The notes beneath the pieces are model-generated. The model had not been told where the DNA came from. It saw only the letters and a list, made by a program, of their open reading frames with translations, and ran no database searches. This document shows, piece after piece, positions 10,664 through 34,877 of a stretch of DNA of 58,930 nucleotides (position 1 is the first letter of the stretch; every line of letters begins with the position of its first letter). Both the position numbers and the translations under genes were made by a program. The stretch is from a virus (taxonomy: Duplodnaviria; Caudoviricetes): the IMG/VR virus record IMGVR_UViG_3300021389_000024, positions 1 through 58,930 of that record. One strand, written 5' to 3'.

Positions 10664-11089
10664 TTAACTAACTGTTACAGTCCAAGTAATTGTCATTGAG
10701 TCAGACGCACCCTTATTAACTACTGAAAAAACAGTTCTACAAAGTAAGTCACCGGAAGAAGAGGCATTTAAAATACCCGCTTCAGTCACAGCACCAGTAC
10801 CAGTACCAGCTCCAAAGGTAGCTACGTAAGTCACAACAGCACCCGATACAGTAGTACTTGTTAAAGCAACACGACCTAGTTGATTTCCTAAAGCGGAATC
10901 GCCAGCTGCGGCTGCTGTAGAACCACTACCAATTGCCATGTGAGACATAGCAGTTGCAGTAGCATCTTTCATTCGAGAGGCAACATATTCCTTTCCATCA
11001 GTAACTACAAGGTTATTGACTTCTTGGACTGTTTCTCCGTTAAGGGCAATTTTTAACTTACCTGTAAGTTTTAAACCGTCGTTTAACAT
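10664..11089 (-). CDS. Virion structural protein
   Basis: NLVVTDGK...SHMAIGSG...GTGAVTEAGI...VVNKG...TWTVT pattern seen in phage tail/baseplate proteins. Confidence 0.65.
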   Translation of the reverse strand: MLNDGLKLTGKLKIALNGETVQEVNNLVVTDGKEYVASRMKDATATAMSHMAIGSGSTAAAAGDSALGNQLGRVALTSTTVSGAVVTYVATFGAGTGTGAVTEAGILNASSSGDLLCRTVFSVVNKGASDSMTITWTVTVS

Positions 11090-11102: not shown

Positions 11103-12563
11103 TTAATTTAATACACTAGTGTTAAATGCAGAGGTGTTAAGTACACTACTTGATCCGGAGACCAATACCACATTTATCGATTCTGTTATTGTAGCACTAT
11201 CTGATAAAGATTTACCAAAAGTATGTGCTAAACTTTCTGAGATAGAAGCACTCTCCGTAAAAATATTTCCAGCGCCAGAAGTAAAAACATCAGCTAAACT
11301 TAGAGTCTCACTAAAAGATGTTGAGAATGAATGAGCAATACTCTCTGTAATTGTAGGGGTGTCTGCAAAACTAGTTGAAAAAGTAAGTACAGGAGCACTG
11401 TCACCCACACCCACAATATTTCCTTTGTTTATACCAAAGTCTGTTTGCAGATCATCAGAAGCACTAGCAGTATCGTCTAATGCATAACTGTCTGAAAAAG
11501 CCCGTGCAAATGTAGCTACACGACTAAATGATTCGGACATAACCACAGATTCAGCAACTTGTACGCTAACTGCACCGCCCATACCACTGTGGTTTGTACA
11601 ATAATAATGTAAAGACGCTGGTGTAGATCCAGTTACTTGTATCTCTACGTAAGCACCAGAAGACCCAGGTGTGCCACTTACAGTCACATTAGTTGTGTAT
11701 GCAGAACCCCCACCGTGTGATCCATTTGCTGTTTCTGAAAATCTAAATGGGTGCCCGCTAACACTAGAGTCCGATAAATCAAACTTATATGTTTTACCTA
11801 CATCTAACGTTAGTGCTGGGCTATTAACGCCATCAATGTGATATTTATTGCCTGATCCATATGAGTTTGTAGCAGAAGCAACGGTTACTGTATAAGTAAC
11901 TGTACCGCTTTCTGGTATTGCTTTACCTACCCCCAACACATTGGACTCAGATATAGTAGCTGTTTCAGAGTGCGGTAAACTAATATCTAAAGCAGGCGTA
12001 TCAGAGATTGACAAGGTATCGCTTTTAGCGGGGTCTATACTCAATACTTCTACATCGCTAAAAGATAAAGTATCACTTTTTGCTGGTTCTATACTTAATG
12101 CAGGAGCATCAGACAGTGTACTACTATCATCAAATGCTGTACTAAAAGCAATTGCAGGGGCATCTGCAAGTGTTGGAGTGTCACTAAATGCTCTAACAAA
12201 ATCTACTACTCTACTAAGAGATTCAGTAATACCAACGGTTTCAGATTTACTGCTAGCAAATGCTGAAGCTAGTTCTTCTGCTATAGAAACAGTTTCTGTT
12301 TTTGTTGTACTAAATGTAAGTGCTGGTGCGTCGGTTAAACCAAAACTTTCAGCATTTGGGTGTCCAGAAAGAAAGTAAAGGTTTTTACTATCTGCATCTA
12401 ATAATACATTTACAGCCGATAAATCTACGTACTGTAATGACGTTTGTAAATTTGTAAACGTAACAAGGGATCTAAGATTTTGAAAAACAGAAACGGGTTG
12501 AATCGAATCTGTGTCAACAGTAACCTTTAGGTTGACATAATCAACTGTAAACTTGATGGCCAT
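11103..12563 (-). CDS. Repetitive tail-associated protein with inserted cupredoxin-like domain
   Basis: ~17-19 aa repeats (SDTLSISDTPAL...); internal domain with GHPF...YYCTNHSGMG. Confidence 0.65.
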   Translation of the reverse strand: MAIKFTVDYVNLKVTVDTDSIQPVSVFQNLRSLVTFTNLQTSLQYVDLSAVNVLLDADSKNLYFLSGHPNAESFGLTDAPALTFSTTKTETVSIAEELASAFASSKSETVGITESLSRVVDFVRAFSDTPTLADAPAIAFSTAFDDSSTLSDAPALSIEPAKSDTLSFSDVEVLSIDPAKSDTLSISDTPALDISLPHSETATISESNVLGVGKAIPESGTVTYTVTVASATNSYGSGNKYHIDGVNSPALTLDVGKTYKFDLSDSSVSGHPFRFSETANGSHGGGSAYTTNVTVSGTPGSSGAYVEIQVTGSTPASLHYYCTNHSGMGGAVSVQVAESVVMSESFSRVATFARAFSDSYALDDTASASDDLQTDFGINKGNIVGVGDSAPVLTFSTSFADTPTITESIAHSFSTSFSETLSLADVFTSGAGNIFTESASISESLAHTFGKSLSDSATITESINVVLVSGSSSVLNTSAFNTSVLN

Positions 12564-12957: not shown

Positions 12958-15900
12958 TTAAAAAATAGACGCCGCAAAAGGTAGGTAGTCTTTAGTGTTG
13001 ATTGTTCTGTCAATGAATATATCATCAAAGCGTTCTGCTGTTGGGCCCAATGCAGGTAAGAACCAAGCATCGCCATAACGTTCAGCTTGTGCCATAGGCA
13101 ACAATAAACCGAATGGCCCATAAATACCAGATCTATCTAGTAGCTCAAACATGTAAGTGCCCCACGGCATTTTATCTGATCTAAAAGCTCTGTCTGCGCC
13201 AGCTTCATCACCTATTGCGCTTCGTCCTAAAAATTTAATAAACTCTCTTAGTTCTAAACCAATAGCAGTTAAAGGTAATAGAAGAGTTGCCATTATTATA
13301 ACGGGCATTATTCTACTGCTTAATTGCCCATCACTTCTATATTTATTTCTGCCCTCTCTAATAGCACCACCAACTATGTTTTTACCGTAAGCATAGAAGA
13401 AAGATTTTAATTGCCATACCAAAGCAAAGTATGGGTTTGAGGCCCACACAGGTCTTTCTGCAGCATTTGGCCTTACAATTGATTCTTCTACAAATCTACC
13501 TAAAGCTTCTTGTACTTTTTTCCCGCCTTCGGTGTCAAACCTTTTTTGGCCGTTTTTATTAGCGCTAGCCCATTCTAATACTTCGTCTGGGGTTAAATTC
13601 TTTTGAAGTTCTCCAAGATGTCTAATTGCAGTTTCATCGCCGTCTTTAGCTTTTTGAGCAAGTCTTATTAAATATTGTTGACCCATACCCGCTGCAAACA
13701 CACGTGTAAACTTAGTGTACTGTTCTAACAAAGTTATTCTAAAAAAGCCTCTTGCGTAACGTTTAGTGTCCTCTGTCATAAACCCAAGCTCTGCAGCGTT
13801 TATGTACATAGTTTCTATTGAGTCATGAGTAACAACTCCTAAATCTCTAGCAAACTGTTCTGCTTCTTTTTTGTTTTTAATTGTGTATTGAAGTTGTTCT
13901 ACAATAGTTCCAAACTTGTCATTCATGTCTTTTGATCTAAGAACTGGTCCTGCTAAATCAGGCAAGGAAGCAATTGCAGCAAAAGTTAAAAGTGTAACCA
14001 TATTACCTAAAAGGGCCCAACTGTTTAATTGACGCATAACTGGGCTCATGTTCATTCCAACTTTACCAAGTTGAGCTTCTATAGCTTTTCTAGCTCCCTC
14101 TCTGCTTGCATCATCTTCTATTCTAGAAAGCAAAATTTCCATAGCTCTCCAACCAGCTACTTCTGTTTCTCCCTCTGCTAACTTTGTTAAAACTTCTGCT
14201 TTGTTTTCACCGTACAACTCTTCTAATTTAGCTTTATCTGCTTCCGTTGGAGCAACAGTAATAGCTTTTTCATACTCTAGTTTTTTAGTAATGCTTTCTA
14301 TGTATGATTTAATTGCAAAATCAGCAGGTGCTAATAAGCCTGCATCTCCTTCTGCATTTATATCACCATTTGCATCTAATCCTCGTCGGGCTGCATGGTT
14401 AGGAATTTTGTCAAAGTATTTCTTTCTTTCTTGAGCCATACCAACAGAAAGTGTAGAAGCATCTTCTTCTGCACTTTGTTTTTCATTTCCTGTTGAATCA
14501 CTATCCTCGTCTGTTATTGCCCACGCTTCAACAAACGCTAACCAACTTTCAAACCCTTTAGGTTTTGCAACTGTAGGGTTGTATTTTGCTAATAGATCAG
14601 CAAGTTTTTGACGTTTTTGTGGGTCATTGACTATTGAAGATAAAAGCCAATGCCTACTAAAGAAATTTTCTTTGTAACGTATATTAGGGTTGTTTGGTGT
14701 TATGTAGGTTTCATAAAAGTCTTGCAAAACTTTTCTCATTGCTTTTGCAGCAACGGGTAAATCATTTGTGTTTACTCTGTCATCTTCTGCTTGTAGTGCA
14801 GCTTCTGCAATAAGCTCAATGTTTAATTCACCATTGCCATCTCTAAAAACAAGATTGCCATTTTCATCCCTAGTATCATACAAAGAGTTTAAATTTTGGT
14901 TTGTTATTAAAGTTCTTGCATTAATAAACCCAAACTTATCTTTAGAAGAAGAACGAGAATATAATTTTTTTGCTATATCTTTTCCGGCTTCACCTAATCC
15001 CCTTAAATACCCATCAGAAGTTTGTAGTAAATATGCAACAGACCAGTAGCCTTTGTCAGTGGTTTGTCCAGGAAGTTTAGCTCGAAGCATTTGTATAACT
15101 TTAGTTTTAATGCTTTCTAATGTTTGTCTACTTACAGATTTACCAGACTCTTTTATTGTTTCTTCGATTACATTTCTAACTTGTACTTCTTGCCCAAAAC
15201 TCATACCTTGCAACGAATCATGTAGGCTTTGATAAGTTCTTCCATTTTCCATAACTTTATTTACATAGGTTTCAAAATCCCCAAAACCAGATGCGGTTTC
15301 TGAAAACCTTTCTCCAAACACAAGATTTCGCATTTTTTTATAAACGTTTTCTATTTTTTTAAATAGCCTAGTAAAGTACCCGCTAACAAAATCGCCGCCT
15401 CGTGCTGTTTCTCCTGTTCTAATTTTCTTTAAAAGTACCGTTGCAAGTTTATCTGCAAACCACTCTTCAAACCCGTACTTAGAATTGTATTGTTCTTTTG
15501 CTTTTGGGTCTGTTGTAGTATCACGTTCTTTTTCAAAAGCATCCATTAAAAACTTTAAACCCCGTTGGTTTTTAAAAAGAAGTTGAAGTTCCGTTCTAAA
15601 CACTGCGTGGCCCATTTCATGTGTTAACGCCAACATTGCAACTGGTAAACTAACGCCATCTAACCTCTGTTGACCTGCTGTAGTTAAATCTGCGTTTTCT
15701 ATTCTGTTTTCTTCAGGAGATATTTCTCCAAACCTATCTGCAAAAAGAATGCCTTCTCTAGGTTGATTATAAAGCCCCGATACCCTACCACTAAACCCTC
15801 TGATTCTTTGTATATCTATTAGAATGACATCTTCATCTGTATCTGGCAGATACACATACTGCGCAAGTTTTTCGTCCTCTTGCATTTTTCTTGCATAAGT

Positions 15901-18900
15901 AAACAAAGTTCTATCTCTAAAAGATTCTTGTGTATCTTCAAGAAACGCATAATGCCCTACTTTTGTTGGCGTCATTTTTGATACTCTTTTAGACATCTGA
16001 GTCTGTTGAATTAATTCTTCTGGAGTTATCATAGTCAGCTTTCTGTTGTATTTAAAAATGCTTTTTGTAACTTCTAAAAGTTTATAAGCAAAATTGTTTT
16101 TAGAATCAGCGCTTTTACTAGGTTTTTTAGTTGGATCTGGGTTGTTGAAATAATCACTTACATTAGGCGAAATTGTTGCGCCTTGTAGCTTTAAAGGTCT
16201 TGTTGTGGTTTTTGGTTGGTTTTTTTGCGCAAATGCTTTTAAAGATTCTGCATGGTTTGGTCTTTGGTTAATATAATATAAAATTGTTTTGCCGGCTAAT
16301 TTACCTTCTGCTATTTGGTCTAAAACCCACTGTCTTCTTTCTTGTTTAAAATCTGTGTGGGCAGTGCCCTCTAGCCATTTTTCATATTGAATTACACTGT
16401 CTTCTAGATTTTTAGTTTTTCTTGCATCTCTAGCATTTGGTAAATGGCTAAAAGGGTTGCCGTAGTGTTTTTCGCCTGGTTTTCGTAAAACACTTATTCC
16501 CTCATTGTTTGCTTCTGCAGTTTTTACAGCTTGTACTCCATTTAAATATTTTATAGTTACTGCTCTAGTTTTGTCAGCATCTTCAGCTATTCTTTGTTGT
16601 AAATTGTTAAACCATGTTTGATTTAATACATCTACTGTATCTTCTTGATCATATTCACGTTCCGCGCCCTCAATTTGCTCTCGTTGTGCAGGCCCTGGGT
16701 CGGCGTAAAGGCTTGGATCGCCTATAGCAAACTCGTTTAAAGTTATATAACCCGCTCTGGGTTCATTTAATTCTGGATAATTTTCAACAAGAAAATCTAA
16801 AATAGCTTCTTGGTCAGTTCTGTCAAAAACAAGAGGAGAAAATGCAGGTCCCCGATCAACAGTATCAACGCCTGGAATTGATTGTTGTGGGTTAACATTT
16901 ACTGGGTCAGTGGGAACAACTTCTCCTGGAAACCTTTTGCTTATTTCATCTCTAAATAACCGATCACTTAAACCTTCTGGTGCTCCTACTTTTTCTATTA
17001 TTTGAGCTATAAACCCCTCTTTTCCAACGGCAGGGCGAGGGGCTCTTATATTCTGCCCACCTGGAAATTCAGCAGAAGGAACCCTTAAACCCTGACGAAT
17101 TGTGTTTTTATTAAATTTAACTCTACTATTTCCATCATCTATTTCTGTTATATTTTTAACCGTGCCACCGGGCCCATACTCTACGTCTATAGGAGCAATA
17201 ACAATTTCTTGTGAAGCGGTGTTTAAATATTCGATAATATTTTTTTGACTTCCCTTTACACCATAATGTAAAGGTCGGCCAATTGCTTCTAAATCAGCTA
17301 TTAAGGTAGGCAAAGCTTGCGCGTATCTAGCTTCTCTTGATATATTTAAATCAATCCCATCTCGGTCAATAATAAAATCAAGTAACTGAATAATACTTAC
17401 ACCATTTGTTCTACCATAAAGTTGATCCGGAGCAGCTGTTTTAGGTCTTAAGTTTTCACTAAACAGATTTGGTTGCGCATATACCCCACCCCTTACTGTA
17501 GGTTCTACAGCATCCATTTTTGTTGCAACAAGAGGGACATTAAAACCTGGTAGTTTATCTAGCCCAGTATCAGACGCATATTTTTTTCTTAAATCATCTC
17601 GAAGGTGTTGAGGATTAGTAGCATTTTGAATAGCCACATTTAGATCTTGATCAAAACTGCTTGATAAAACTCTTGCGTTGTAAGCTAGCTCACCCGCGTC
17701 ATTTTCTTGCACTTCTATACCAACATCTAAAGATGGGTCTCTTTTTTTAGCCTTCATTACCTCTGTAATAAGGTTTAATGGCACGTTATCAAAGTTAACG
17801 GTGCTTACTTGTGGGCCTATTGCATCTAAAAACTCTTGTTTTTCTTGTTCGGAAGGAGTTTCTTTTTGTTTTAAAGTATCACTTTCATATGCGCTAATAG
17901 CCCTTTTGGGGACTGAAAACAACAAAGTCCCCTCTACAAACTTGCCTGTTTGTAAAGTTTCGTCTCCTGCATCTGCAAAAACCCTACCATCATTATCATC
18001 ATCAGTTGCTTCTTCTGTTGGAGTTGTTACTCCTTCTTGGCTATCTCCCTCTGCAAATATATCTTCGGCAGTAGCAGCATTATTAGCCATAGCATCGGCC
18101 AATGCTTCATCTCTATCTTCCCCTAAATCTCTTGTTATTGGGCTAGAGCGTTGGACAAAATCTTGTATTGGGCTAGTAGTTTCTCCTTCGCCTTCTTCTT
18201 CTAACCTACGCGCTTCATACTGTGCTTCAAAAGAATCTTCTTGGTCTGCTAGTGGAGTAGCATTACTATCAACTAAATTAACAATATCATCTACAGTGTA
18301 TGTTTTTTGTCCATCTGGACCCGCGTTATCTTCTCTTAAATAACCTGCGTCTACAGCGGCTTCTATCAGCTGATCAACTCCCATGCCACCAGTTTTTGTA
18401 TAACTAAAAGTGCCCCTATCTAATCTATCTCTTAGTTCAGCAACCCCTACCGCTTTAGGATCAAGTTTGTTGTTTCTAAGAAAAGTTTTAAATGGTACAT
18501 TCTTTTTAACAGGTTTAGCTTTAGCTTTTGGTTTTCGTTTAGCTTTTGGTTTTAATGTACGTTGAAACCTTGAGGGCCTAGACCCCTGTAACTCCGCATC
18601 TGTTTCTTCACCAAAAAACAGTTCTTCTTGTAAAGGTTGAGTACGTTCAAAAAAGTCTGTTTCTGTTTCTGCTACGATTTCTGCATTAGGATTATTAGCT
18701 TGTAGGTTCCTAGAAGCGGCTTCAATAGATGCTTCGTCAGCAGGAACAGCTTCATAATCAATGGTTCTGCCTTTGCTATCAATGGCGCGTATGATAATGT
18801 CACCAGATTCAGGAAGTGCACTTAAGTTAAATAAGCCTTGAAATGTTTCAGGGTTAGTAAAATCATTTTCAAAAGCAGTACCTCTTTTTTCTCTACTAAC

Positions 18901-20427
18901 CTCGCTGTTTTGATCAAATACCAACACCCCACCAGCAGCCTCGTTTATAATCAAATTAGCGTCGGGAAATTTTTCTAAAATACTTGCTACATCAGCCCTA
19001 GTTTTATTTGGCATCCACACTAATGCTCTTTTAGAAGCCGGATCTAACATTGCTTCTATTTGCCCTTCATAATCATCGTCGGTTAATTCAACTTTGGAAG
19101 GATCAATACTACCAGTAAGGTTGTTATTAGTTATTCTAGCCTTGGCTTCATTTTGCAAATCTTGCTGCATTTCGCCGCCAGTAGAAATCATTTTATAAGC
19201 TTCTGCTATAACACCAGAAGGTGCTCCCCTTGCGCCACCAGCCATAGCACCCATAAACAAAGCTTCTATACCCCTAATTTTAGCTTCAGCTTTTGTGTAT
19301 TCTGGGTCTATTGCAAATCTTTGTTGGATAAGTATTTCTTCTTGTGCACGTTCAGTTAAACCCTCTGCTACTGCACTACCTGCAAAACCGACAGCGCCGG
19401 CTTTACCTAAATCTAATAAAAACTCACCTGCAGTAGAATCACCCGCAGCCTTTCTTAAAACTCTAAGATCTTTTTTAGAAAGTTCTCCTGGTTTATCTAA
19501 AATTTGTCTGACCGTGCTATTTTTCACTAAATCGCCTGTAGCTTTTTTAAACAAAGGCGCAAAGAAAGCCGCTTCTCCAACGACGTCTAAAACGGCTTGG
19601 GGAAAACCTAAAGCAACAGCCATTTTGGCTTCTTTTGCAGTTAGTTTATATCCAGCGTCGTCATACTCTTTAAATGATTGAGAAGCACCTACTATCTCGC
19701 CTTGTGTAAGTGCGCCTGTTACTGCACCTATAGTGGGAAGGCGCAGGCTTTCTGCTCTTGCTCTAGCATATTTATTACCCGCAACATCAAACATACCCCC
19801 TTTTCCTACTGGAGCTGACTTAGCATATTTTAAGCCATCAAACGTTGTATCTAAAATTTCTTGTTCTGCTTTAGTCAAACCTGGACCTCGGCCCAAATTA
19901 CCCATAACTTTTTTTCTTTGTATGTCTAAAAGCATTTGTTTGGCGTATGTTTTACCGCCCTGGCTTATAATTTGTTTACCTAAAAACCCAGCTAAAAGAC
20001 CAGTCCCCGCCGAAGCAAAAGAAAACATTGCCTGCGGAGTAGTCATTGTTATAGCTTTGGTACTTTGATCTAAAAAACCAGAAAAAGTAGGTTCATCTAA
20101 AAATTCTTCAAACTGTCCAAACGGCTCTAAAATAGTAGAAAAACTCTGTTCAAGTTCTCTTGAACGTTCCATTTTAGCTTCGGCAGCATCGGTATTGCCC
20201 CTCAAATAATCAACGATAGCACCAGCGGTGATTATGTCAGATTCAACTTGTTGTGCCCCAGCGCGTAAACCCGCAGATACTTGTCCACTAAAGCTAGTTG
20301 GGCCTACTACTGGGCCTTTTTGGTCAGGTTGTCCTACACGAGTTGGGCCTTTAACAGATGATAAAGATTCAACGTCTTGTTTTTGTACTGCAAAAAATTC
20401 AGCTAAAGGGTTAGAATTGTCAGCCAT
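12958..20427 (-). CDS. Large internal virion (DNA ejection) protein, polyvalent-like, with zincin motif
   Basis: 2489 aa; Gly/Ala-rich membrane-active N-terminus (AEGLTERAQE), THEMGH...EEWFAD, C-terminal QLKSFFY block typical of podovirus ejection proteins. Confidence 0.75.
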   Translation of the reverse strand: MADNSNPLAEFFAVQKQDVESLSSVKGPTRVGQPDQKGPVVGPTSFSGQVSAGLRAGAQQVESDIITAGAIVDYLRGNTDAAEAKMERSRELEQSFSTILEPFGQFEEFLDEPTFSGFLDQSTKAITMTTPQAMFSFASAGTGLLAGFLGKQIISQGGKTYAKQMLLDIQRKKVMGNLGRGPGLTKAEQEILDTTFDGLKYAKSAPVGKGGMFDVAGNKYARARAESLRLPTIGAVTGALTQGEIVGASQSFKEYDDAGYKLTAKEAKMAVALGFPQAVLDVVGEAAFFAPLFKKATGDLVKNSTVRQILDKPGELSKKDLRVLRKAAGDSTAGEFLLDLGKAGAVGFAGSAVAEGLTERAQEEILIQQRFAIDPEYTKAEAKIRGIEALFMGAMAGGARGAPSGVIAEAYKMISTGGEMQQDLQNEAKARITNNNLTGSIDPSKVELTDDDYEGQIEAMLDPASKRALVWMPNKTRADVASILEKFPDANLIINEAAGGVLVFDQNSEVSREKRGTAFENDFTNPETFQGLFNLSALPESGDIIIRAIDSKGRTIDYEAVPADEASIEAASRNLQANNPNAEIVAETETDFFERTQPLQEELFFGEETDAELQGSRPSRFQRTLKPKAKRKPKAKAKPVKKNVPFKTFLRNNKLDPKAVGVAELRDRLDRGTFSYTKTGGMGVDQLIEAAVDAGYLREDNAGPDGQKTYTVDDIVNLVDSNATPLADQEDSFEAQYEARRLEEEGEGETTSPIQDFVQRSSPITRDLGEDRDEALADAMANNAATAEDIFAEGDSQEGVTTPTEEATDDDNDGRVFADAGDETLQTGKFVEGTLLFSVPKRAISAYESDTLKQKETPSEQEKQEFLDAIGPQVSTVNFDNVPLNLITEVMKAKKRDPSLDVGIEVQENDAGELAYNARVLSSSFDQDLNVAIQNATNPQHLRDDLRKKYASDTGLDKLPGFNVPLVATKMDAVEPTVRGGVYAQPNLFSENLRPKTAAPDQLYGRTNGVSIIQLLDFIIDRDGIDLNISREARYAQALPTLIADLEAIGRPLHYGVKGSQKNIIEYLNTASQEIVIAPIDVEYGPGGTVKNITEIDDGNSRVKFNKNTIRQGLRVPSAEFPGGQNIRAPRPAVGKEGFIAQIIEKVGAPEGLSDRLFRDEISKRFPGEVVPTDPVNVNPQQSIPGVDTVDRGPAFSPLVFDRTDQEAILDFLVENYPELNEPRAGYITLNEFAIGDPSLYADPGPAQREQIEGAEREYDQEDTVDVLNQTWFNNLQQRIAEDADKTRAVTIKYLNGVQAVKTAEANNEGISVLRKPGEKHYGNPFSHLPNARDARKTKNLEDSVIQYEKWLEGTAHTDFKQERRQWVLDQIAEGKLAGKTILYYINQRPNHAESLKAFAQKNQPKTTTRPLKLQGATISPNVSDYFNNPDPTKKPSKSADSKNNFAYKLLEVTKSIFKYNRKLTMITPEELIQQTQMSKRVSKMTPTKVGHYAFLEDTQESFRDRTLFTYARKMQEDEKLAQYVYLPDTDEDVILIDIQRIRGFSGRVSGLYNQPREGILFADRFGEISPEENRIENADLTTAGQQRLDGVSLPVAMLALTHEMGHAVFRTELQLLFKNQRGLKFLMDAFEKERDTTTDPKAKEQYNSKYGFEEWFADKLATVLLKKIRTGETARGGDFVSGYFTRLFKKIENVYKKMRNLVFGERFSETASGFGDFETYVNKVMENGRTYQSLHDSLQGMSFGQEVQVRNVIEETIKESGKSVSRQTLESIKTKVIQMLRAKLPGQTTDKGYWSVAYLLQTSDGYLRGLGEAGKDIAKKLYSRSSSKDKFGFINARTLITNQNLNSLYDTRDENGNLVFRDGNGELNIELIAEAALQAEDDRVNTNDLPVAAKAMRKVLQDFYETYITPNNPNIRYKENFFSRHWLLSSIVNDPQKRQKLADLLAKYNPTVAKPKGFESWLAFVEAWAITDEDSDSTGNEKQSAEEDASTLSVGMAQERKKYFDKIPNHAARRGLDANGDINAEGDAGLLAPADFAIKSYIESITKKLEYEKAITVAPTEADKAKLEELYGENKAEVLTKLAEGETEVAGWRAMEILLSRIEDDASREGARKAIEAQLGKVGMNMSPVMRQLNSWALLGNMVTLLTFAAIASLPDLAGPVLRSKDMNDKFGTIVEQLQYTIKNKKEAEQFARDLGVVTHDSIETMYINAAELGFMTEDTKRYARGFFRITLLEQYTKFTRVFAAGMGQQYLIRLAQKAKDGDETAIRHLGELQKNLTPDEVLEWASANKNGQKRFDTEGGKKVQEALGRFVEESIVRPNAAERPVWASNPYFALVWQLKSFFYAYGKNIVGGAIREGRNKYRSDGQLSSRIMPVIIMATLLLPLTAIGLELREFIKFLGRSAIGDEAGADRAFRSDKMPWGTYMFELLDRSGIYGPFGLLLPMAQAERYGDAWFLPALGPTAERFDDIFIDRTINTKDYLPFAASIF

Positions 20428-25989: not shown

Positions 25990-26019
25990 AAAAAAGGGGT
26001 GGCTCAAAATGAACCACCC
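25990..26019 (-). terminator. Rho-independent terminator after the MCP
   Basis: Minus strand GGGTGGTTCA-TTT-TGAGCCACCC followed by a T-tract. Confidence 0.8.
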
Positions 26020-26031
26020 ACAAAAACATAC

Positions 26032-27177
26032 TTAGTATGCAACGTCCAATCTAATGACACCAAAGTCTTCAACGCCACCATTGTAGTCGCTGTTAAACTT
26101 AGGCTTCTTAAGACCGAAGATTTTACCAATGGAGATACCATTTTGGTTACCATAGTCGAAAGTATCTTCAACTATTTGTGGTAGACCAATATCTGCCATA
26201 GCAAGAGCTTGAGCTCCACAGAATAAACAAGCAGAACCGTTGACATCAGCGTCAGCGCCCCATTTGTATCCAGCAGAACCGGCATTTGAAGATGTTCCAG
26301 TAGTTGCATTAGCAGTGTTAAACACATGTCTAAACTCATGGACCATAATACCGTCAACCATTAGACTTGAAGAACCAGCGAACAAGCTGTTGCTTGGTCC
26401 TCTGACTCCAGCATTTCTGACGTTAGCCAAGAAATCTGAATCAAGTTTAAGGTCAGCCATTACTTGAGGTGATACAAATAAATGATACATCTCATCTCCA
26501 CCTGCGCCTCTTACTCCACGGATGTAGTTGTCTTTAGCATAAGCTTTAAGAGCAACTAAACACTCGTAAGTAATGGTGTCAGCAGCTGCAACTGCAGTTA
26601 CGTCACCAGCAACAAGTTTACTAGTAGCATCCCATCTTCTATGTCTGTTAGAAGTTGGAGCTGTTACATCTGAACCAAAAGTCATGTCGCCAAGATTTTG
26701 TCCTGAAGTCAGAACAGGTCTCAAAGCACCACTGTTTTTGATTGTGTAAGAAATACCAGAAAGCGTTAAGAACGCTAATTGGTCAATACGATCTGCCATT
26801 GCATAAGCAAGTGCATCACGTGAGTTCTCACGGAAATTAACAACTGATTTTTGATCAGCTAATCTACCAGAAAGTCTATTAGCAAATCTCAATTGATCGA
26901 GTTGTACAACAATGTCGTAGGCTCTTAAGGTCTCTTCATTACCTTCTAAGGTGTTGTCTCCAACGATACCGTCACCAGTCATGTCAGCTAAAAGTGTTAA
27001 TACAGCTCTAGCTCCTTTTTCTGATTGAGTAAGTTCAGATATTCTCTGAACCATAGCATTAGATCCGCTACCTGCGAATTGGTTAATGAAGGACATATTC
27101 CTAGCGACACGCCAAAAATCACGTGACCAGATAGTTAATTGTTCGCTGGTCAACGCGCTAAAGTTTGTGTTAGCCAT
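26032..27177 (-). CDS. Major capsid protein (N4-gp56/DUF4043-like)
   Basis: GGAGG RBS before ATG at 27177 (MANTNF); GDNTLEGNEE, LDQLRFA, FDYGNQNGISIGKIFGLKK, EDFGVI; follows scaffold and is followed by a terminator. Confidence 0.9.
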   Translation of the reverse strand: MANTNFSALTSEQLTIWSRDFWRVARNMSFINQFAGSGSNAMVQRISELTQSEKGARAVLTLLADMTGDGIVGDNTLEGNEETLRAYDIVVQLDQLRFANRLSGRLADQKSVVNFRENSRDALAYAMADRIDQLAFLTLSGISYTIKNSGALRPVLTSGQNLGDMTFGSDVTAPTSNRHRRWDATSKLVAGDVTAVAAADTITYECLVALKAYAKDNYIRGVRGAGGDEMYHLFVSPQVMADLKLDSDFLANVRNAGVRGPSNSLFAGSSSLMVDGIMVHEFRHVFNTANATTGTSSNAGSAGYKWGADADVNGSACLFCGAQALAMADIGLPQIVEDTFDYGNQNGISIGKIFGLKKPKFNSDYNGGVEDFGVIRLDVAY

Positions 27178-27205
27178 TGGGCTATCCTCCAAAAAAAATA
27201 ATACC

Positions 27206-27364
27206 TAGCCAACTTATTGGAGCGGCTATTTACCCGTATACCCTTTTTCGTTGGGGAGACGCTTTCATAGTTTTACGAACATGACCTCGATCAGTTTTAC
27301 GCCGTGACAGGCGAAAACGTTTTTTAGTGGAACGACCCACACTAATTATCGTATTAGTACCGAA
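27206..27364 (-). ncRNA. Structured 5' leader of the MCP gene (tandem mini-pseudoknots)
   Basis: Repeated CG-stem-CG-(T/A)AAAA-stem units with complementary arms; see findings. Confidence 0.55.
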
Positions 27365-27373
27365 TTCTTATAT

Positions 27374-27382
27374 CTTATACCA
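27374..27382 (-). promoter_or_regulatory. Putative extended -10 promoter for the MCP
   Basis: Minus strand TGGTATAAG (TGnTATAAT-like) directly upstream of the structured leader. Confidence 0.4.
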
Positions 27383-27386
27383 AGCC

Positions 27387-28454
27387 TTAACCAAAGTCAC
27401 CACGCATTCTGCGCAATGTTTCGGCTGGAAGAGCATCAAACTCTTCACTTGATAACAGCGATAAATCTATTTTCTTTTCTGTTTTGCTCTCACCTTTCAT
27501 TGCAGGTGGTTGAGCATCAGCAGCTTTTAATTTTTTAGTTACATTAGCCACTTGTTGTTTTTCTTGGGCCGTTGTATCTACTTTTTTAGTTGGGTTTTCA
27601 ACTGCCGGATTTAGTAATTCTGGTTTTTGAGCTGCAATTGTGTATTGAGTAGCTTTTCCTAATGCATCTGCAGGTGAATAACCTTGAGACATAAAAGCAT
27701 CTCGCAATTCAACTACCTCTGCTTGCAAATTAGCATCAAAAGAAGGGTCATTTTCACTTAACATAGGGTAAGTAGCCTCAATTTCAGCTGCTTTTGCTTG
27801 TAATTCAGTCATTTCTTGACTTTGTTGCACTGTTTGACCCATTTTTGCTTGTACTTCAAACATAAATTGGTCTTTTTCAGCTTGTCTTATCTGATTTCTT
27901 AACTCTACGGCCTTTTCAGTCTCTCCATTAAGCACTAAATCCTGATATTCAACTTCTTTTGCATCAAAATCATACTCTGGAGCGTTTTCTGCGGCAGCTT
28001 TTTCAGCTGCAGTAGCTTCTTCTAGCTTTTTTTGCATAGCTTTGTTTTTTGCTAACACTTCATCAAGCCTAGACTTAGGCACCATAGGCGCTTTTACTTT
28101 TTCTTGCTCGTCAAGGCTTTGCTCGCTTCCTTCAACTGCTGGAATATCTGGTTGTGGAGTTGACTCGCTGTCTTCAACCACTCCTTCTTCGCTAATATCT
28201 TCTGGTTCAACTGCTTCTTCTTCTTTAGCTTCTGGTTCTGGTTCTTCCGCAACAGCCTCTTCTTCTGGAGCGGCGTCAACTTCCTGTTCGACTTCTTCAT
28301 TTTCTGCTTCCTCCTCTGGAGCATCTTCTTCAAAATTCAAATCTACTTCAAATGGTTTTGCGTCTTCTTCCGAAACTGCATCTGCCCCCGGCATTACATC
28401 CATAACTAGATCGTCTTTTGCTTCCGTATTATCTTGTTTTTTACTTTTAGCCAT
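27387..28454 (-). CDS. Capsid scaffolding protein
   Basis: Acidic disordered N-terminus, MVPKSRLDEV, coiled coil, C-terminal LSSEEFDALPAETLRRMRGD; between portal and MCP. Confidence 0.8.
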   Translation of the reverse strand: MAKSKKQDNTEAKDDLVMDVMPGADAVSEEDAKPFEVDLNFEEDAPEEEAENEEVEQEVDAAPEEEAVAEEPEPEAKEEEAVEPEDISEEGVVEDSESTPQPDIPAVEGSEQSLDEQEKVKAPMVPKSRLDEVLAKNKAMQKKLEEATAAEKAAAENAPEYDFDAKEVEYQDLVLNGETEKAVELRNQIRQAEKDQFMFEVQAKMGQTVQQSQEMTELQAKAAEIEATYPMLSENDPSFDANLQAEVVELRDAFMSQGYSPADALGKATQYTIAAQKPELLNPAVENPTKKVDTTAQEKQQVANVTKKLKAADAQPPAMKGESKTEKKIDLSLLSSEEFDALPAETLRRMRGDFG

Positions 28455-28455
28455 T

Positions 28456-30567
28456 TTATTTACCTCCTGTAGGTTTCATGGCGGCGGTTGCAATTTTTGC
28501 AGCCGCTGCTGTTTGTGTTTGCTCGCTTCTTATCTGATTAGTCATCCCTGACAACCTTTCACGTAAGTCGAGTTCTTCCTTCTTCATTTGAAGTTTGCTT
28601 TGTAAATCCGCAACTCTAATTTGTGGATCACTTGAAGTGGATTGAGTTTTAGCCATATTTAGCTGTGCCTCAGAATTTAATCTTTGTACTTCTGCTTCTA
28701 ACTTAGCAATTTCAAGTTGTGTTGCTCTAATTGCAGCTTCTTGCTGGAATTGTTGTATCTGCATTTCAGCTTCAGTTGGAGGGTTCATACCCTCTGCTAT
28801 TCTAATTCTTTCTGCAATTTCACCTTTACGTGCTAAGTGTGAGTATTCAACAATTAAGTCATTTGGAATTGGCACTCCAACTTTTCTAAGTTCTATAGAC
28901 TCAGCAAATTGTGTTTCTTCAAAAGTATCTCTTGAAGGAGCATCTCCTATAACTACATCATATTCACCTAGAGTCAAATTATTAATAATCTGACCTTCTG
29001 GTGTTACTTGATTTACAACCATAGGTTGTTTTGGTTTCATTGGATTATTTTCATCAGTAATTTGTATAACCCTTTCTTCTGTGTAATAAGATTGTACTAA
29101 GTTTAAAATTCTTTCTGCTAAATACTGACGAGTCTTTCGTAAGTTATCTAATGGCACCTGTATCATTAACGCGCCACGAGTTTGTTTTTGTTGAATAGCA
29201 ATTCCAGATACTTCCGCCCCATCTGTACCTAACATTGCATCACTTATGCCGCTTATTTGTTTTATGTTAGCGGAAGCTTTTTGTGCAATTCTATCTAGAC
29301 CGGTGGGAATCTGGTTTGGCGGTATTTTACCAGGGGGAGTACTACCGCGATTAAACTCGAGTACTAAACCAGTTTCCGCACCGTGTTCTTCTAAATCATC
29401 TGCATTCATTCCAGTTAAAGAACCTGACTCTACAATCCAACCACTATTAGCAGTTGTATTAACTATATGTAGTTCTTGAGATGAAATTTTGTTTAGTTGT
29501 TCTTGGGGTGAAATTAAATTTCTAACCATTCCAAAAGGTTTACCCCTTCTAAAATACGGAAAGTAAGGTACTAAAGTAAAATGGTCATAGGGAGACCAAT
29601 CATCGTGCAATACAACAGTGTCAGCAGTTACTGTCCAACGGACTTTTTTAACCATTTTTTCTGTTATATATAAACCGTAGTCATCTGCAAATTTTTTCTT
29701 TTTGCGTTCCCCCCAATTATAAGGTACGGGCCTTTTATCGCCTGTTACTGGGTCAACATAAAACATACATTTCTTTAATTTATAATGTTGTCTTTCTATA
29801 ACTCTAATTGACCGTAAAGCTCTAGCTTCGTCTGGATTATTTGGATAATGATTTGTAGAGCCTTCATAGTCCCCTTTTGTATCCCCGTAAGTTTCATCTT
29901 CAAACTCCATAGAATCTGCACCAAGTGTAGAACCTACTTCAGCAATCATACGCAACTTATCTGCTTTGTCTTGCCCATAAGTCTCTTCTATTTCTTCTAG
30001 GCTCATCCACTTGCTTTCAAAAATTTCATTCCAAGTTTTTGGATCATATTCTTTAGCATCTGGGTCAATTAAAATATCTAGGGGATCTTTTTGTGTAATT
30101 CTAACTTCACCTTTTACATGATCAGAAAAATCTATACGGACATCAAACCAACCCCGGTCTTGAATTAAGCCGTCAGCAAAAACCTGGCCCTCTACCCATT
30201 CTAATTTATTATTATCAGAAATTTGCATGTACAGTTTTGTTAAGGTATCGGAAATTTCCTGGACACCAGAACCACGAGGTTTAAATTGTACATCTGCTCT
30301 TCGCGTACTTTGTTCGCCAAGAACTGTGTTAACTGTAGGTAAAATTGTGTTGATTGTTAATGCTGGTCGACCCTGATCGTCAAGCGCTGCTATGTCAGCT
30401 TCGTCCCATTGTTCCCCTCTATAAAAGGCATCGCATTTTTTTGCTGTATCAATATATTCTTCATGGCCGCTGTCGCGTGCTCGTGTGTAACACTCCCATT
30501 GACGTTTTGCAAGGGTTAAGGATTCAGCTTCACTTAGCTTCTTTTTTTTATTTTTGTACTCTGCCAT
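28456..30567 (-). CDS. Portal protein (P22-like)
   Basis: 703 aa; FYRGEQW, GRPALTINTI, DPLDILIDPDA, GMVRNLISPQEQLNK, SGIAI, C-terminal coiled coil. Confidence 0.9.
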   Translation of the reverse strand: MAEYKNKKKKLSEAESLTLAKRQWECYTRARDSGHEEYIDTAKKCDAFYRGEQWDEADIAALDDQGRPALTINTILPTVNTVLGEQSTRRADVQFKPRGSGVQEISDTLTKLYMQISDNNKLEWVEGQVFADGLIQDRGWFDVRIDFSDHVKGEVRITQKDPLDILIDPDAKEYDPKTWNEIFESKWMSLEEIEETYGQDKADKLRMIAEVGSTLGADSMEFEDETYGDTKGDYEGSTNHYPNNPDEARALRSIRVIERQHYKLKKCMFYVDPVTGDKRPVPYNWGERKKKKFADDYGLYITEKMVKKVRWTVTADTVVLHDDWSPYDHFTLVPYFPYFRRGKPFGMVRNLISPQEQLNKISSQELHIVNTTANSGWIVESGSLTGMNADDLEEHGAETGLVLEFNRGSTPPGKIPPNQIPTGLDRIAQKASANIKQISGISDAMLGTDGAEVSGIAIQQKQTRGALMIQVPLDNLRKTRQYLAERILNLVQSYYTEERVIQITDENNPMKPKQPMVVNQVTPEGQIINNLTLGEYDVVIGDAPSRDTFEETQFAESIELRKVGVPIPNDLIVEYSHLARKGEIAERIRIAEGMNPPTEAEMQIQQFQQEAAIRATQLEIAKLEAEVQRLNSEAQLNMAKTQSTSSDPQIRVADLQSKLQMKKEELDLRERLSGMTNQIRSEQTQTAAAAKIATAAMKPTGGK

Positions 30568-32213
30568 TAAGCGCTCATTGATGATTTACGTTTTCCATCT
30601 TTTACTAAATGTTTTAATCCATCTCTCCACGACGGAACATGCTCAGGTCTTTCAAAAAATGTAGCAAATTCTGTCATCATTAAACCGATCCACGCCAAGG
30701 CATCCACCTGGTCGTCATGTGTACCATTTGGAAAACGTAATAGCTCTGCAACCATTGGTCCAGTCCAAACAGCATCTTGTGGAAAGTATACCATACCTTG
30801 TTGCATTCTACCCTGGATTGCTCGTGCACGTAACTCCTTATCTCGCCTACCAACTTTTAAGTCTTTAAAGTAAGCTTCAGATAGGCCCCGCTCTCTTGTT
30901 CTTTTTTCTAGAAACGGCCCCAGGGCCATCTCAATATGACCTCTTTCTATTCCCACTATACCCGGACGCCATAGTTCGTACAAGTCTAAAATTTGTTCTA
31001 CTAATTCAAAGCCATCGTACTTACCGCGAACGACGTCAACAACAAATAAATTATCGTATTCATCGACACCGACAACAATACCAACTGAGTAATCGTTCCG
31101 GTCACGCTGTCCGATCGCAAGATCCCACGCGCAGTAGTAACGAAGTTTTGAAGTATCGATTTCATCGAAGTCATAATATGCGATCATGTCGCGGTTAAAG
31201 TAATCGCCTTCGTCAGATACTGGATTCTGTTGGTATAGAGCAGACCAATCGCGCGGGCCGATGGCTTTCCTTATCTGCTCGAGAGCGTCCACATTATATC
31301 TCTCTGGGTGTAAACTTTCACCTGTTTTCCTAAAATTTTCGTCTTCTTCTGCAATGGCTGGGTAGCGAATGACTTCCCATTCATCTGCGCCTTCTTCTGC
31401 TTGGGTCAACAAGCGACCGGCCAGGTCGTCGTCGTGCCAACGCGTAAGAATTACAAGTATGCCTCCACCTGGGGATAACCTTGTATAAGCTGTGGATGTA
31501 TACCAATCCCAGGTCGCATCTCTGTTATTATCAGATTCTGCATCTTCTCTGTTTTTTACTGGATCATCTATCACCATTACGTGCGCACCTTTACCAGTAA
31601 TACCACCACCAACACCCGCTGCTACATAACCGCCGCCTTGAGTCGTTTGCCATGATTCTACTGACTGAGAATCTTTATCTAGTCTAGATTTTTCAAACAC
31701 ATTTTTGTATACTGGTTCTCTAAGCAGTTGACGTACTTTTCGTGAAAAGTTCATAGCCAAAGAGCCTGAATAAGAACAACTTATAAACTCATGCTCGGGA
31801 TGCCGGCCCAAGTGCCAGGCAGGGAAAGCAATACTAGCTAACGTAGATTTACCATGTCGAGGTGGCATAAAGAGCATCAGTCTTGGTGATTCTTTATTCG
31901 CAACCTGTTCGCTAAATTTCTCTAGTCGTTGACAAATATCTTTGTGTACCCAACCTGCTTGATAGTCTGTATTAAATCGTTCAACAAATGGGAGTAATCT
32001 TTTACGTGCTAAGACTCTTTTCGCTAATTCTTGTTCTGCTTTTGCTTGAGCAGAAAGTTCTGCTTTTTTTGACTTCTGATCAGTCAGTTTTTGGGGCTCG
32101 GGTATTGCTTCAACTTCGTCAGCTCGACAGTATACGCAAATTTCGTCAATAAGAACTAAGTTCTCCGGATAGAGCCCGCGACATCTTTTACATTCAGTCT
32201 TCGTTACTTCCAT
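30567..32213 (-). CDS. terL: Terminase large subunit
   Basis: Walker A MPPRHGKS, Walker B VIDDP, TRWHDDDL, LYQQNP, nuclease AWDLA and HDDQVDA; probable start ATG at 32213. Confidence 0.95.
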   Translation of the reverse strand: MEVTKTECKRCRGLYPENLVLIDEICVYCRADEVEAIPEPQKLTDQKSKKAELSAQAKAEQELAKRVLARKRLLPFVERFNTDYQAGWVHKDICQRLEKFSEQVANKESPRLMLFMPPRHGKSTLASIAFPAWHLGRHPEHEFISCSYSGSLAMNFSRKVRQLLREPVYKNVFEKSRLDKDSQSVESWQTTQGGGYVAAGVGGGITGKGAHVMVIDDPVKNREDAESDNNRDATWDWYTSTAYTRLSPGGGILVILTRWHDDDLAGRLLTQAEEGADEWEVIRYPAIAEEDENFRKTGESLHPERYNVDALEQIRKAIGPRDWSALYQQNPVSDEGDYFNRDMIAYYDFDEIDTSKLRYYCAWDLAIGQRDRNDYSVGIVVGVDEYDNLFVVDVVRGKYDGFELVEQILDLYELWRPGIVGIERGHIEMALGPFLEKRTRERGLSEAYFKDLKVGRRDKELRARAIQGRMQQGMVYFPQDAVWTGPMVAELLRFPNGTHDDQVDALAWIGLMMTEFATFFERPEHVPSWRDGLKHLVKDGKRKSSMSA

Positions 32214-32715
32214 CTGGCTCCAAGTAGTTCGTATCGTTACCGGCAAGTTTCAAAAGTTGCGCATCAGTTAATTTTTCTAACTGTTCTACTTTCTCTACAT
32301 TTATATTAATCATGGTTGCTTGTTCAGGAATGTGTAGACCGTGGAGCTTGCACAACGAATCAACAACGTTCTTTTCTTCCGTCGAGTTGGCTGCTTTTGA
32401 ATGAGCTTCTAAGTACATGCCAGTTGCTGTGTTCTTATCGAACTTTACCTCTTCGCGCATTTCATTACGTAGATAGGTTAGAGCTTTTTGCATTTTAGGA
32501 GTTTTGAATATTTGGTAAACACGGTCCATGTCCTTGTACCCCGCAGCACGTCCGGCGGCTGCTTTGCTCATTCCCCTTAGATGAAACAAAACCAGCCGCT
32601 CTTCCTGAACCGAAAGCTCGTTAAGTTGTAAACCGGCATAAGGCAGGTGAGATTGTAACTCAGTTCTATCTTGTTCGGTCATATCTGTGGGTCTATCTTC
32701 GTCTAGTAATCGCAT
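32194..32715 (-). CDS. terS: Terminase small subunit
   Basis: GMSKAAAGRAAGY HTH-like segment, LCKLHGL, LTDAQLLKLA; immediately upstream of terL. Confidence 0.75.
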   Translation of the reverse strand: MRLLDEDRPTDMTEQDRTELQSHLPYAGLQLNELSVQEERLVLFHLRGMSKAAAGRAAGYKDMDRVYQIFKTPKMQKALTYLRNEMREEVKFDKNTATGMYLEAHSKAANSTEEKNVVDSLCKLHGLHIPEQATMININVEKVEQLEKLTDAQLLKLAGNDTNYLEPDGSNED

Positions 32716-34419: not shown

Positions 34420-34790
34420 GTTCAACGTGTGCCCTACTACTATCATCACGTAGTGATGTGGACGGTGCTTGCACCACGGTGAGAAAATGTTCCACATGTT
34501 CCACGCAAAAATCACCTTGTGGAACAAGTATGTGGAACACAACTTTAGTTGCAACCACGGGTGTTCAACGTGTGCTAGCACCGAAATGTTCCAATGTTCC
34601 ATCAAAAACAGAACTTGCGTAAGACTGACCGTCGACCGTTGTTATTTGTTCTTTAATTTTGTTAACCAAAAAGTACTGGAACACATGGAACATTTCCCAT
34701 TTATCCAGTAACCAAGCACCTTTCGCGTGTTCCACGAGGCCCATTTTACGTGGAACATTGTGGAACACGTGGAACATTTGTTTCAAAACA
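34420..34790. repeat. Array of TGTTCCA/TGGAACA heptamers (putative replication origin)
   Basis: 12 copies in three converging inverted groups within a region lacking credible ORFs. Confidence 0.7.
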
Positions 34791-34877
34791 GAAACCACTG
34801 GGCTTCGGTCTGGCTTCTTGGTTCTTTTAGCTCTGTTAAATAACCAGCTTTCTCTTAAACCCAAGCTTGGGTGGTTT

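Follow-up and report, generated by a model that had tools for sequence, protein, structure and literature searches.

A covarying array of six H-type pseudoknots in the leader of a phage major capsid protein gene

In the marine phage represented by the IMG/VR viral record IMGVR_UViG_3300021389_000024 (Duplodnaviria; Caudoviricetes), the leader of the major capsid protein (MCP) gene contains six consecutive H-type pseudoknots, denoted PK-A to PK-F, at positions 27363-27206 of the minus strand, with 12 helices and 50 base pairs. The window analysed here is this complete record of 58.9 kb (58,930 nucleotides (nt), about 39% G+C), and leader position p corresponds to window position 27387-p. The pseudoknot array is conserved in hundreds of related phages.

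An earlier note, made from the window sequence alone, had described a tandem H-type array in this leader, composed of three units with additional elements around them. The tandem array stands, and all units that the note quoted lie on the minus strand where it placed them, but the actual extent is six knots rather than three units plus extras. The TAGCC/GGCTA stem that the note saw downstream of the units also exists; it is not a lone stem but stem 2 of the sixth knot, PK-F.

Architecture of the pseudoknot array

The elements of the leader, all on the minus strand, are as follows.

27178-27386, minus: intergenic gap between the scaffold-like gene and the MCP gene (the leader), 209 nt
27341-27363, minus: PK-A, 4 + 6 pairs (stem 1 + stem 2, as in the lines below), third loop of 2 nt
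27318-27340, minus: PK-B, 4 + 4 pairs, A-rich third loop, no gap after PK-A
27290-27313, minus: PK-C, 4 + 4 pairs, A-rich third loop
27265-27289, minus: PK-D, 4 + 5 pairs, A-rich third loop, no gap after PK-C
27241-27261, minus: PK-E, 3 + 3 pairs, the most conserved of the six knots
27236-27240, minus: unpaired, nearly invariant linker UAYAC between PK-E and PK-F, delineated from alignment columns
27206-27235, minus: PK-F, 3 + 6 pairs

The 12 helices are arranged as six crossing pairs, the arrangement of the H-type class. First loops are 1-4 nt long, second loops 0-1 nt and third loops 2-7 nt; the third loop of PK-A, 2 nt over 3-4 pairs, is a tight span. With second loops of 0-1 nt, stem 1 and stem 2 of each knot have what they require to stack on one another. 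The spacers between successive knots are also short, with 4, 3 and 5 nt before PK-C, PK-E and PK-F, respectively, and 0 nt between PK-A and PK-B and between PK-C and PK-D. Because nothing separates the members of these two couples, each couple could stack as a coaxial rod of about 17-18 pairs, and we infer such coaxial stacking of the abutting knots.

The loops that cross stem 1 consist of 51-77% A, compared with 30% A across the leaders, in agreement with the A-rich loops of the earlier note. Its count of 13 CG dinucleotides is right as well: the 159-nt array contains 13, against 7.5 expected from base composition, in a genome with an observed/expected CpG ratio of 0.69. The CG dinucleotides occur mostly as one step within one stem of each knot.

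No tandem repeats were found in the array with Tandem Repeats Finder (TRF), and the sole direct repeat is a 9-nt sequence in two copies, located in the third loops of PK-C and PK-D. One relative, an IMG/VR contig (L193), lacks exactly the stretch between the two 9-nt copies, and most of one knot is gone; this loss looks like the outcome of repeat slippage or recombination, or else an assembly artefact.

Covariation among related leaders

A search of viral contigs with the MCP yielded 80 loci with capsid proteins that are 83-99% identical. The gap between the scaffold and MCP genes measures 208-242 nt in all 74 relatives in which the end of the upstream open reading frame (ORF) could be located. 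A first set, consisting of the window and 74 relatives, comprised 54 distinct leaders. For a second set, a scan for an invariant 18-nt core added at least 120 further stretches of viral contigs. The core is present in 195 of 199 related loci and the other four carry a one-base variant. Full context, that is, 170 nt upstream and an MCP-type start within 120 nt, was available for 184 of the 195 core loci, and at these the conserved core is always 5' of the MCP-type start. The second set comprised 101 distinct leaders, and a one-column shift of the window's PK-A row in its MAFFT alignment was corrected.

Pairs were counted on a MAFFT alignment that was blind to structure, so that the counts are lowered, if anything; as controls, the 3' partners were slid by 1-3 columns. 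Among the 54 leaders, 94.6% of 2681 cells are in standard pairs, compared with 29.6-42.6% in the slid controls. Changes on both sides were detected in 28 of the 50 pairs (5-9 when slid), with 319 compensatory cells (13-54 when slid), and the covariation score of 0.372 (at most 0.081 when slid) was reached in none of 500 column shuffles. The results for the 101 leaders are much the same: 94.8% of 4929 cells are paired (28.7-43.3% when slid), 30 of the 50 pairs show compensatory changes (5-14 when slid), and the covariation score is 0.328 (at most 0.080 when slid), equalled in 0 of 500 shuffles. Compensatory cells number 524 (27-100 when slid), a count that overstates the independent events because many of the 101 leaders are closely related. 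Relatedness alone is nevertheless insufficient to account for the pairing, because the slid controls, which are equally related, remain 29-43% paired. At least one pair has changed on both sides in 11 of the 12 helices, and part of the mispairs are register shifts in subgroups (stem 2 of PK-C and stem 2 of PK-F), in which an H-type knot is still formed.

In PK-A, all six stem-2 pairs have changed on both sides among the 101 sequences. Its fourth stem-1 pair is U-A, C-G or G-C among the relatives; in the window itself, stem 1 contains one mismatch, G27 with A35, where most relatives have U-A, C-G or G-C. PK-B has both-side changes in all four stem-1 pairs and a U-A to C-G change in stem 2. One stem-1 pair of PK-C is C-G in 55 sequences and U-A in 46, three of its four stem-2 pairs have changed on both sides, and its single-nt second loop is C, U or A among relatives. 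PK-D has three such pairs in each stem. In PK-F, stem 1 (GGG with UCC) covaries as G-C, A-U and G-U, the third pair being G-C in 79, A-U in 13 and G-U in 8 sequences, and five of the six stem-2 pairs have changed on both sides. Stem 1 of PK-E (CGU with ACG) does not vary at all among the 101 leaders and thus gives no covariation evidence either way, whereas stem 2 (CCC with GGG) covaries in 4 of the 101 sequences.

This comparative pairing confirms the pseudoknot architecture of the five units in the earlier note. The covariation that the note perceived among units within one leader extends to covariation between phages (30 of 50 pairs compensatory, 11 of 12 helices), and the comparison of homologous MCP leaders that it proposed as a check recovers this signal (score 0.328 versus at most 0.080).

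Strand and single-sequence statistics

Wobble pairs in the helices are G·U or U·G in 211 cases and A·C or C·A in 8. The structure therefore belongs to the MCP-sense RNA, as these counts would be reversed on the other strand, and both the MCP-leader location and the MCP-sense strand proposed earlier are borne out.

The window was also searched with an H-type pseudoknot scanner that requires perfect helices and bounded loop lengths and scores chained knots. The leader obtained a chain score of 119 with six knots, compared with a mean of 36 (standard deviation 19, maximum 98) for 300 dinucleotide shuffles, none of which reached 119, and it ranked top among 11,754 windows of 167 nt on both strands. 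The scanner alone is not convincing, however, because unrelated windows score 110 and 107. These next-best windows, 34711-34877 on the plus strand (110) and 10784-10950 on the minus strand (107), have six knots each, and their scores may be due to chance. The first of them is located near a strand-switch region, amid small ORFs and several terminator-like hairpins. The nested minimum free energy fold of the leader did not reach significance (z = -0.87, matched by 40 of 200 shuffles), a null result that is expected because crossing pairs are outside the model.

Distribution beyond the close relatives

The closest named MCPs are those of Pseudomonas phages KPP25 and phiR18 (54% identity), followed by Aeromonas phage phiA008 (45%) and Acidovorax phage AP1 (44%). 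Between these and the close relatives are several loci from marine genome bins with MCPs that are 76-82% identical to that of the window. The six knots recur in their leaders in unchanged order, and the stems are for the most part different; the observed scanner score was reached by 0 of 100 shuffles in four of them and by 4 of 100 in the fifth. Stem 2 of PK-E is replaced by other complementary 4-5-mers in these leaders, and stem 1 is unchanged. The metagenome-assembled genome (MAG) bins in question (L286-L291) are labelled Gammaproteobacteria, Dehalococcoidales, Neomarinimicrobiota, a Poseidoniales archaeon, Verrucomicrobiales and Proteobacteria, and are most likely binning artefacts; as their taxa disagree, the MAG bins were not used to infer a host.

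A profile search built around AP1 retrieved 80 loci whose capsid proteins are 49-87% identical to that of AP1. The MCPs of this clade are about 44-46% identical to that of the window. Among 33 alignable leaders, the scanner detected three homologous knots: X is present in 33 (with 13 distinct stem-1 and 23 distinct stem-2 sequences), Y in 30 (12 and 15, respectively) and Z in 32 (8 and 13). The AP1 clade thus carries three to four pseudoknots in the same position before the MCP gene, with stems unlike the marine ones. Knot X, in which stem 1 contains CG and the third loop is A-rich, is similar to the marine PK-C. Two leaders of this clade (L223 and L238) have an insertion of about 25 nt between X and Y that folds as an extra H-type pseudoknot, which suggests that knot units are gained and lost as modules. 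Units can come and go in such a modular manner: the marine clade has six, the AP1 clade has three to four, and leaders that have gained or lost a single unit occur.

A fourth, long-looped knot of the AP1 clade, W, was rejected as a scanner call, given that the loose scan does not discriminate (276 of 330 shuffles also score). The W candidate is a GC-rich hairpin right after the scaffold stop, with a 3' arm that ends 0-2 nt 5' of X in 16 of 33 leaders, a positional pattern that is suggestive of a further knot.

In the wider set of 72 distinct leaders, the chain score relative to each leader's own shuffles has a mean z of 1.82, and z exceeds 1.64 in 56%. Whole-gap scans of KPP25, phiA008 and AP1 taken singly were not significant (31, 29 and 25 of 300 shuffles as good, respectively), nor was that of a Pasteurella relative (11 of 100 shuffles as good), and we make no claim of a pseudoknot array for KPP25, phiA008 or Pasteurella. 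The Pasteurella relative (L292) is a contig of Pasteurella testudinis DSM 23072, the genome of a cultured bacterium, and presumably a prophage; its MCP is 52% identical, a terminator-like hairpin follows the upstream gene, and at least one knot with a CG stem and an A-rich loop precedes the capsid gene. In KPP25 (L201, 2293-2340) and phiA008 (L202, 1804-1835), a hairpin follows the scaffold-like gene; that of KPP25, with its clear T-run, resembles a genuine terminator. In both phages a leader of about 140-165 nt comes next, and then the MCP gene. As KPP25 and phiA008 share the long leader, a long structured gap is a lineage-wide trait. A single-protein search with the phiA008 MCP returned one identical contig only.

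Comparison with known RNA families

A search of the whole window against Rfam 15 gave no match at the gathering thresholds, and only three chance-level hits (E 4-9) in positions 26900-27700. Neither full-text literature searches nor Rfam turned up a leader of six serial knots in a bacterial mRNA or a DNA phage, although the candidate list of PMC10690425 may include this locus unnamed. That paper surveys IMG/VR and reports 10,006 candidate structured RNAs without names, of which five lie upstream of a T7-type capsid family. We judge the array to be a new RNA family.

Plant RNA viruses are the textbook case of tandem pseudoknot domains, and T4 and tisB provide known examples of a single pseudoknot in a leader. 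The closest architecture is that of the tobamovirus pseudoknot domain. [quoted passage not shown] The UPD belongs to the 3' UTR of a plant virus with a plus-strand RNA genome, where it adjoins a tRNA-like end and works with eukaryotic factors; the array described here has six units, is unrelated to the UPD in sequence and occupies the leader, 5' or intercistronic, of an mRNA from a DNA phage. Consecutive knots without a spacer are common to both (A/B and C/D here), the position in a 3' UTR beside a tRNA-like end is not shared, and the array is not a member of that family.

The intergenic internal ribosome entry site (IRES) of dicistroviruses is another RNA built of pseudoknots, about 190 nt in length, just 5' of a capsid ORF. 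Its three knots are interlocked in one ribosome-mimicking fold of a eukaryotic RNA virus, whereas the knots described here are independent and serial, are followed by an ordinary Shine-Dalgarno (SD) sequence and AUG, and match nothing in Rfam.

In size (about 21-30 nt) and in the A-rich third loop, which possibly lies in the minor groove of stem 1, the units appear similar to preQ1-I and compact luteovirus-type frameshift knots. A ligand-sensing function as small preQ1-I-like riboswitch aptamers could be imagined on this basis, given that PK-B to PK-E presumably share with preQ1-I the stem-loop-stem order along with the A-rich third loop. However, no Rfam hit for such an element was obtained at E up to 10 over 26900-27700, conserved ligand-contact nucleotides are lacking, the second loop of PK-C varies, no conserved expression platform competes with the ribosome site, and the downstream gene encodes a major head protein rather than a queuosine-related product; the array also lies outside coding overlaps. 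Riboswitch aptamers are therefore an extremely unlikely explanation.

Phages mimic ToxI repeats, and tandem pseudoknots with A-rich loops in a phage bring to mind a processed trans-acting RNA, either a ToxI-like decoy for a host defence nuclease or a structural RNA. ToxI-like RNAs would be expected to form an array of near-identical repeats, but the units here are not sequence repeats (none by TRF, a single 9-nt repeat) and have no Rfam match. The neighbours are the scaffold-like ORF and the MCP gene, with no toxin among them, and the spacing to the MCP ribosome site is fixed, so that we consider this origin very improbable.

Flanking signals and RNA libraries

The features that surround the array, all on the minus strand, are the following.

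30567-32246, minus: large terminase (PHROGs match)
28456-30567, minus: portal (PHROGs match)
27387-28454, minus: scaffold-like ORF of 355 amino acids (aa), taken from the ORF list and named by its position between portal and MCP
27367-27383, minus: AT-rich conserved block of 17 nt with a -10-like TAnnnT hexamer, putative promoter of the MCP transcript
27186-27205, minus: U/A-rich, single-stranded spacer, then the Shine-Dalgarno sequence GGAGG (27186-27190), read from the sequence
26032-27177, minus: MCP gene, 381 aa, ATG at 27177 (phrog_334 major head protein, E = 9e-80)
25990-26019, minus: intrinsic terminator right after the MCP stop, with a 10-pair stem and a T-run

The TAnnnT hexamer ends 5-13 nt (mode 8) 5' of the first pair of PK-A in 50 of the 51 testable leaders; three leaders were too short as trimmed, and in one the hexamer is further away. 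The hexamer fits a -10 element with a putative transcript start at the foot of PK-A. Scanning for promoter consensus sequences revealed neither a complete sigma-70 site, with the two hexamers, at the leader nor a good -35 element. The 17-nt block is unique in the window except for a second copy at 11784-11800, which has three mismatches and lies inside an ORF, and was dismissed as a chance match.

On the other side of the array, about 15 U/A-rich nt separate PK-F from the SD sequence GGAGG, which is followed by the ATG. Among the relatives the spacer is variable yet AT-rich, and an SD-like GGAG is kept. Pairing of the 3' arm of PK-F stem 1 with the SD sequence as a switch is possible in the window; inspection of the relatives by eye showed that it is not conserved, and this candidate was rejected.

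Downstream of the MCP gene, 46 of 55 distinct regions from relatives contain a terminator-like hairpin with a T-run no more than 90 nt from the MCP stop, and its stems differ and covary. With a -10-like hexamer 5' and a terminator 3', the MCP gene looks like a bracketed unit. In the window, the terminator directly precedes the SD sequence and ATG of the next gene (25978).

An array at or near the start of a unit that ends in a conserved terminator, with more genes on the same strand beyond it, is what would be expected of an antitermination element, a cis-acting RNA that modifies RNA polymerase to read past the MCP terminator, and we take the put RNAs of phage HK022 as the likeness. The put RNAs are paired stem-loops, however, and are not known to be pseudoknots, the array has no Rfam match, and a leaky terminator would suffice to set the MCP-to-tail ratio. 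On balance, antitermination by the array seems highly unlikely.

Contigs from marine metatranscriptomes of four studies include some that join the leader to the MCP coding sequence. Contig depth drops upstream of about 27450 in three of four runs and not in the fourth, and the contig ends disagree. This evidence consists of contigs, possibly including DNA, that do not mark transcript starts; it is compatible, if weakly, with co-transcription of the leader and the MCP gene.

Possible functions of the array

The structural part of the earlier note's interpretation is strongly supported by covariation, strand and breadth. Of the functions that the note went on to propose, we favour a role in stability and translation of the message, in view of the position of the array, its flanks and published work on RNase E. 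Specifically, with a probability that we put at about 0.5, the array is a constitutive, cis-acting leader with coaxial knots that would block 5'-end-dependent scanning by RNase E and keep the ribosome site open. The gap would be transcribed together with the MCP gene, and the RNA would fold into six compact knots. Stacked coaxially, these would form a large, persistent obstacle to RNase E scanning from a 5' end, which could be that of the transcript itself or the product of an upstream cut, as the barrier would work in both cases. The 50 pairs, in runs of 18, 17, 6 and 9, would stand between upstream 5' ends and the ribosome site, and RNase E would be kept from the exposed ribosome site and the coding region. 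The ribosome site is the leader's only long single-stranded U/A-rich stretch, and the self-contained local folds would leave it unpaired. The MCP segment would then outlive the portal and scaffold segments, the terminator hairpin would guard the 3' end, and the result would be a long-lived, heavily translated capsid message.

The precedent comes from Escherichia coli. As shown by Richards and Belasco (PMC9943677), RNase E scans from a monophosphorylated 5' end, and H-type knots in a 5' UTR, placed between the 5' end and downstream sites, impede this scanning to an extent that scales with the number of coaxial pairs (8, 11 and 15). Conversion of a knot into two side-by-side hairpins reduced the protection ratio from 31 to 2, and as tandem hairpins protect so little, selection for knots over hairpins would be explained. 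The obstacles engineered in that work are knots from eukaryotic viruses and telomerase placed in reporters, whereas the array described here is natural and a putative barrier. Coaxial pairs in the path of the enzyme, the structural prerequisite for such a barrier, are present in the leader.

Several considerations weigh against this reading. It depends on a 5' end, an in vivo fold and a half-life effect that we infer, and covariation would look the same for hairpins that alternate as for knots that form together. That RNase E is present is an assumption based on the Proteobacteria that the named relatives infect, while the MAG taxa of the marine clade are inconsistent. Single small knots of 6-9 pairs are only modest obstacles in PMC9943677. 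In the AP1 clade, the first knot starts right after the scaffold stop, which leaves little room for a promoter, so that the array there would be internal to a polycistronic RNA. In the metatranscriptomes, two RNA contigs bridge the leader and the 3' end of the scaffold gene, which points to read-through transcripts or DNA carry-over. Finally, the invariant stem 1 of PK-E and the UAYAC linker suggest sequence-specific recognition, which a steric barrier does not need; indeed, no reading so far accounts for the sequence conservation of these two elements.

The same two elements, invariant or nearly so and free of any covariation constraint, are what would be expected of a sequence-specific contact if the array were an operator, as the earlier note suggested for scaffold or capsid protein, at which free MCP, scaffold or some other late protein of the phage would bind and so couple MCP translation to assembly by feedback. 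The location between the scaffold and MCP genes fits such an operator. A parallel is seen in gene 32 of T4, which has a leader pseudoknot in a phage mRNA before the regulated gene, through which the gene 32 protein self-regulates its translation (PMC10690425). There, a single 5' knot, with a long unstructured A/U-rich tract after it, nucleates binding of the gene's own single-stranded-DNA-binding product, whereas here six knots precede a capsid gene and only about 15 nt of spacer are open. Moreover, the other five knots vary in sequence with pairing kept, which points to shape or bulk rather than sequence recognition, and the stems and linkers of the AP1 clade differ. The scaffold-like ORF has no family match, and no search aimed at RNA-binding domains in the neighbours was made. 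We regard an operator as doubtful.

The short distance of about 15 nt from the end of the array to the U/A-rich spacer and SD sequence, together with the fact that MCP is the protein required in the largest amount, could also indicate a ribosome standby or docking platform, in which the knots would bind S1 or the 30S subunit, pass it to the open ribosome site and raise MCP translation. In the E. coli tisB +42 mRNA (PMC7708055), binding of S1 and 30S, as well as standby translation, depends on a pseudoknot near the 5' end, 5' of the ribosome site, and high S1 affinity is noted for many pseudoknots. That system differs in that it has only one knot, that its ribosome site is sequestered and lies 100 nt away, and that it belongs to a toxin-antitoxin pair. 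The MCP ribosome site is not sequestered, so that standby is not obviously required, and six different knots exceed the needs of one docking site. A standby platform is compatible with obstruction of RNase E and may act jointly with stabilisation; as an explanation of the array, it seems rather unlikely to us. A combination of the two, in which the array would be a self-contained, IRES-like or standby module that docks 30S via S1 and walls off RNase E, is a tentative proposal of low probability. If true, it would make capsid synthesis independent of the transcript start and of host mRNA turnover.

If the favoured reading, obstruction of RNase E scanning with an open ribosome site, is right, the array would be the first natural, evolved pseudoknot obstacle to this enzyme, such obstacles having so far been limited to engineered reporters. 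The element is abundant: at least 120 viral-contig stretches contain the core, which in every case precedes the capsid gene, and the design recurs in a sister clade that includes cultured phages. The cultured relatives Acidovorax phage AP1 and Pseudomonas phage KPP25 make for a clean test system. The array could also serve as a compact, modular 5' UTR part to stabilise and insulate bacterial messages, and as a marker for the annotation of capsid genes in viromes.

Genome context

The 355-aa scaffold-like ORF was without a match in PHROGs. On the far side of the MCP terminator, 26 kb of structural genes follow on the same strand. Seven further large ORFs were scanned, with matches to DNA polymerase, primase, helicase and virion proteins and none to an RNA polymerase. 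No tRNA genes were found within the window, and a megablast search of phage records gave no matches. An ORF of 2489 aa at 12958-20427 on the minus strand matches virion structural protein families, with the matches confined to its last ~380 residues.

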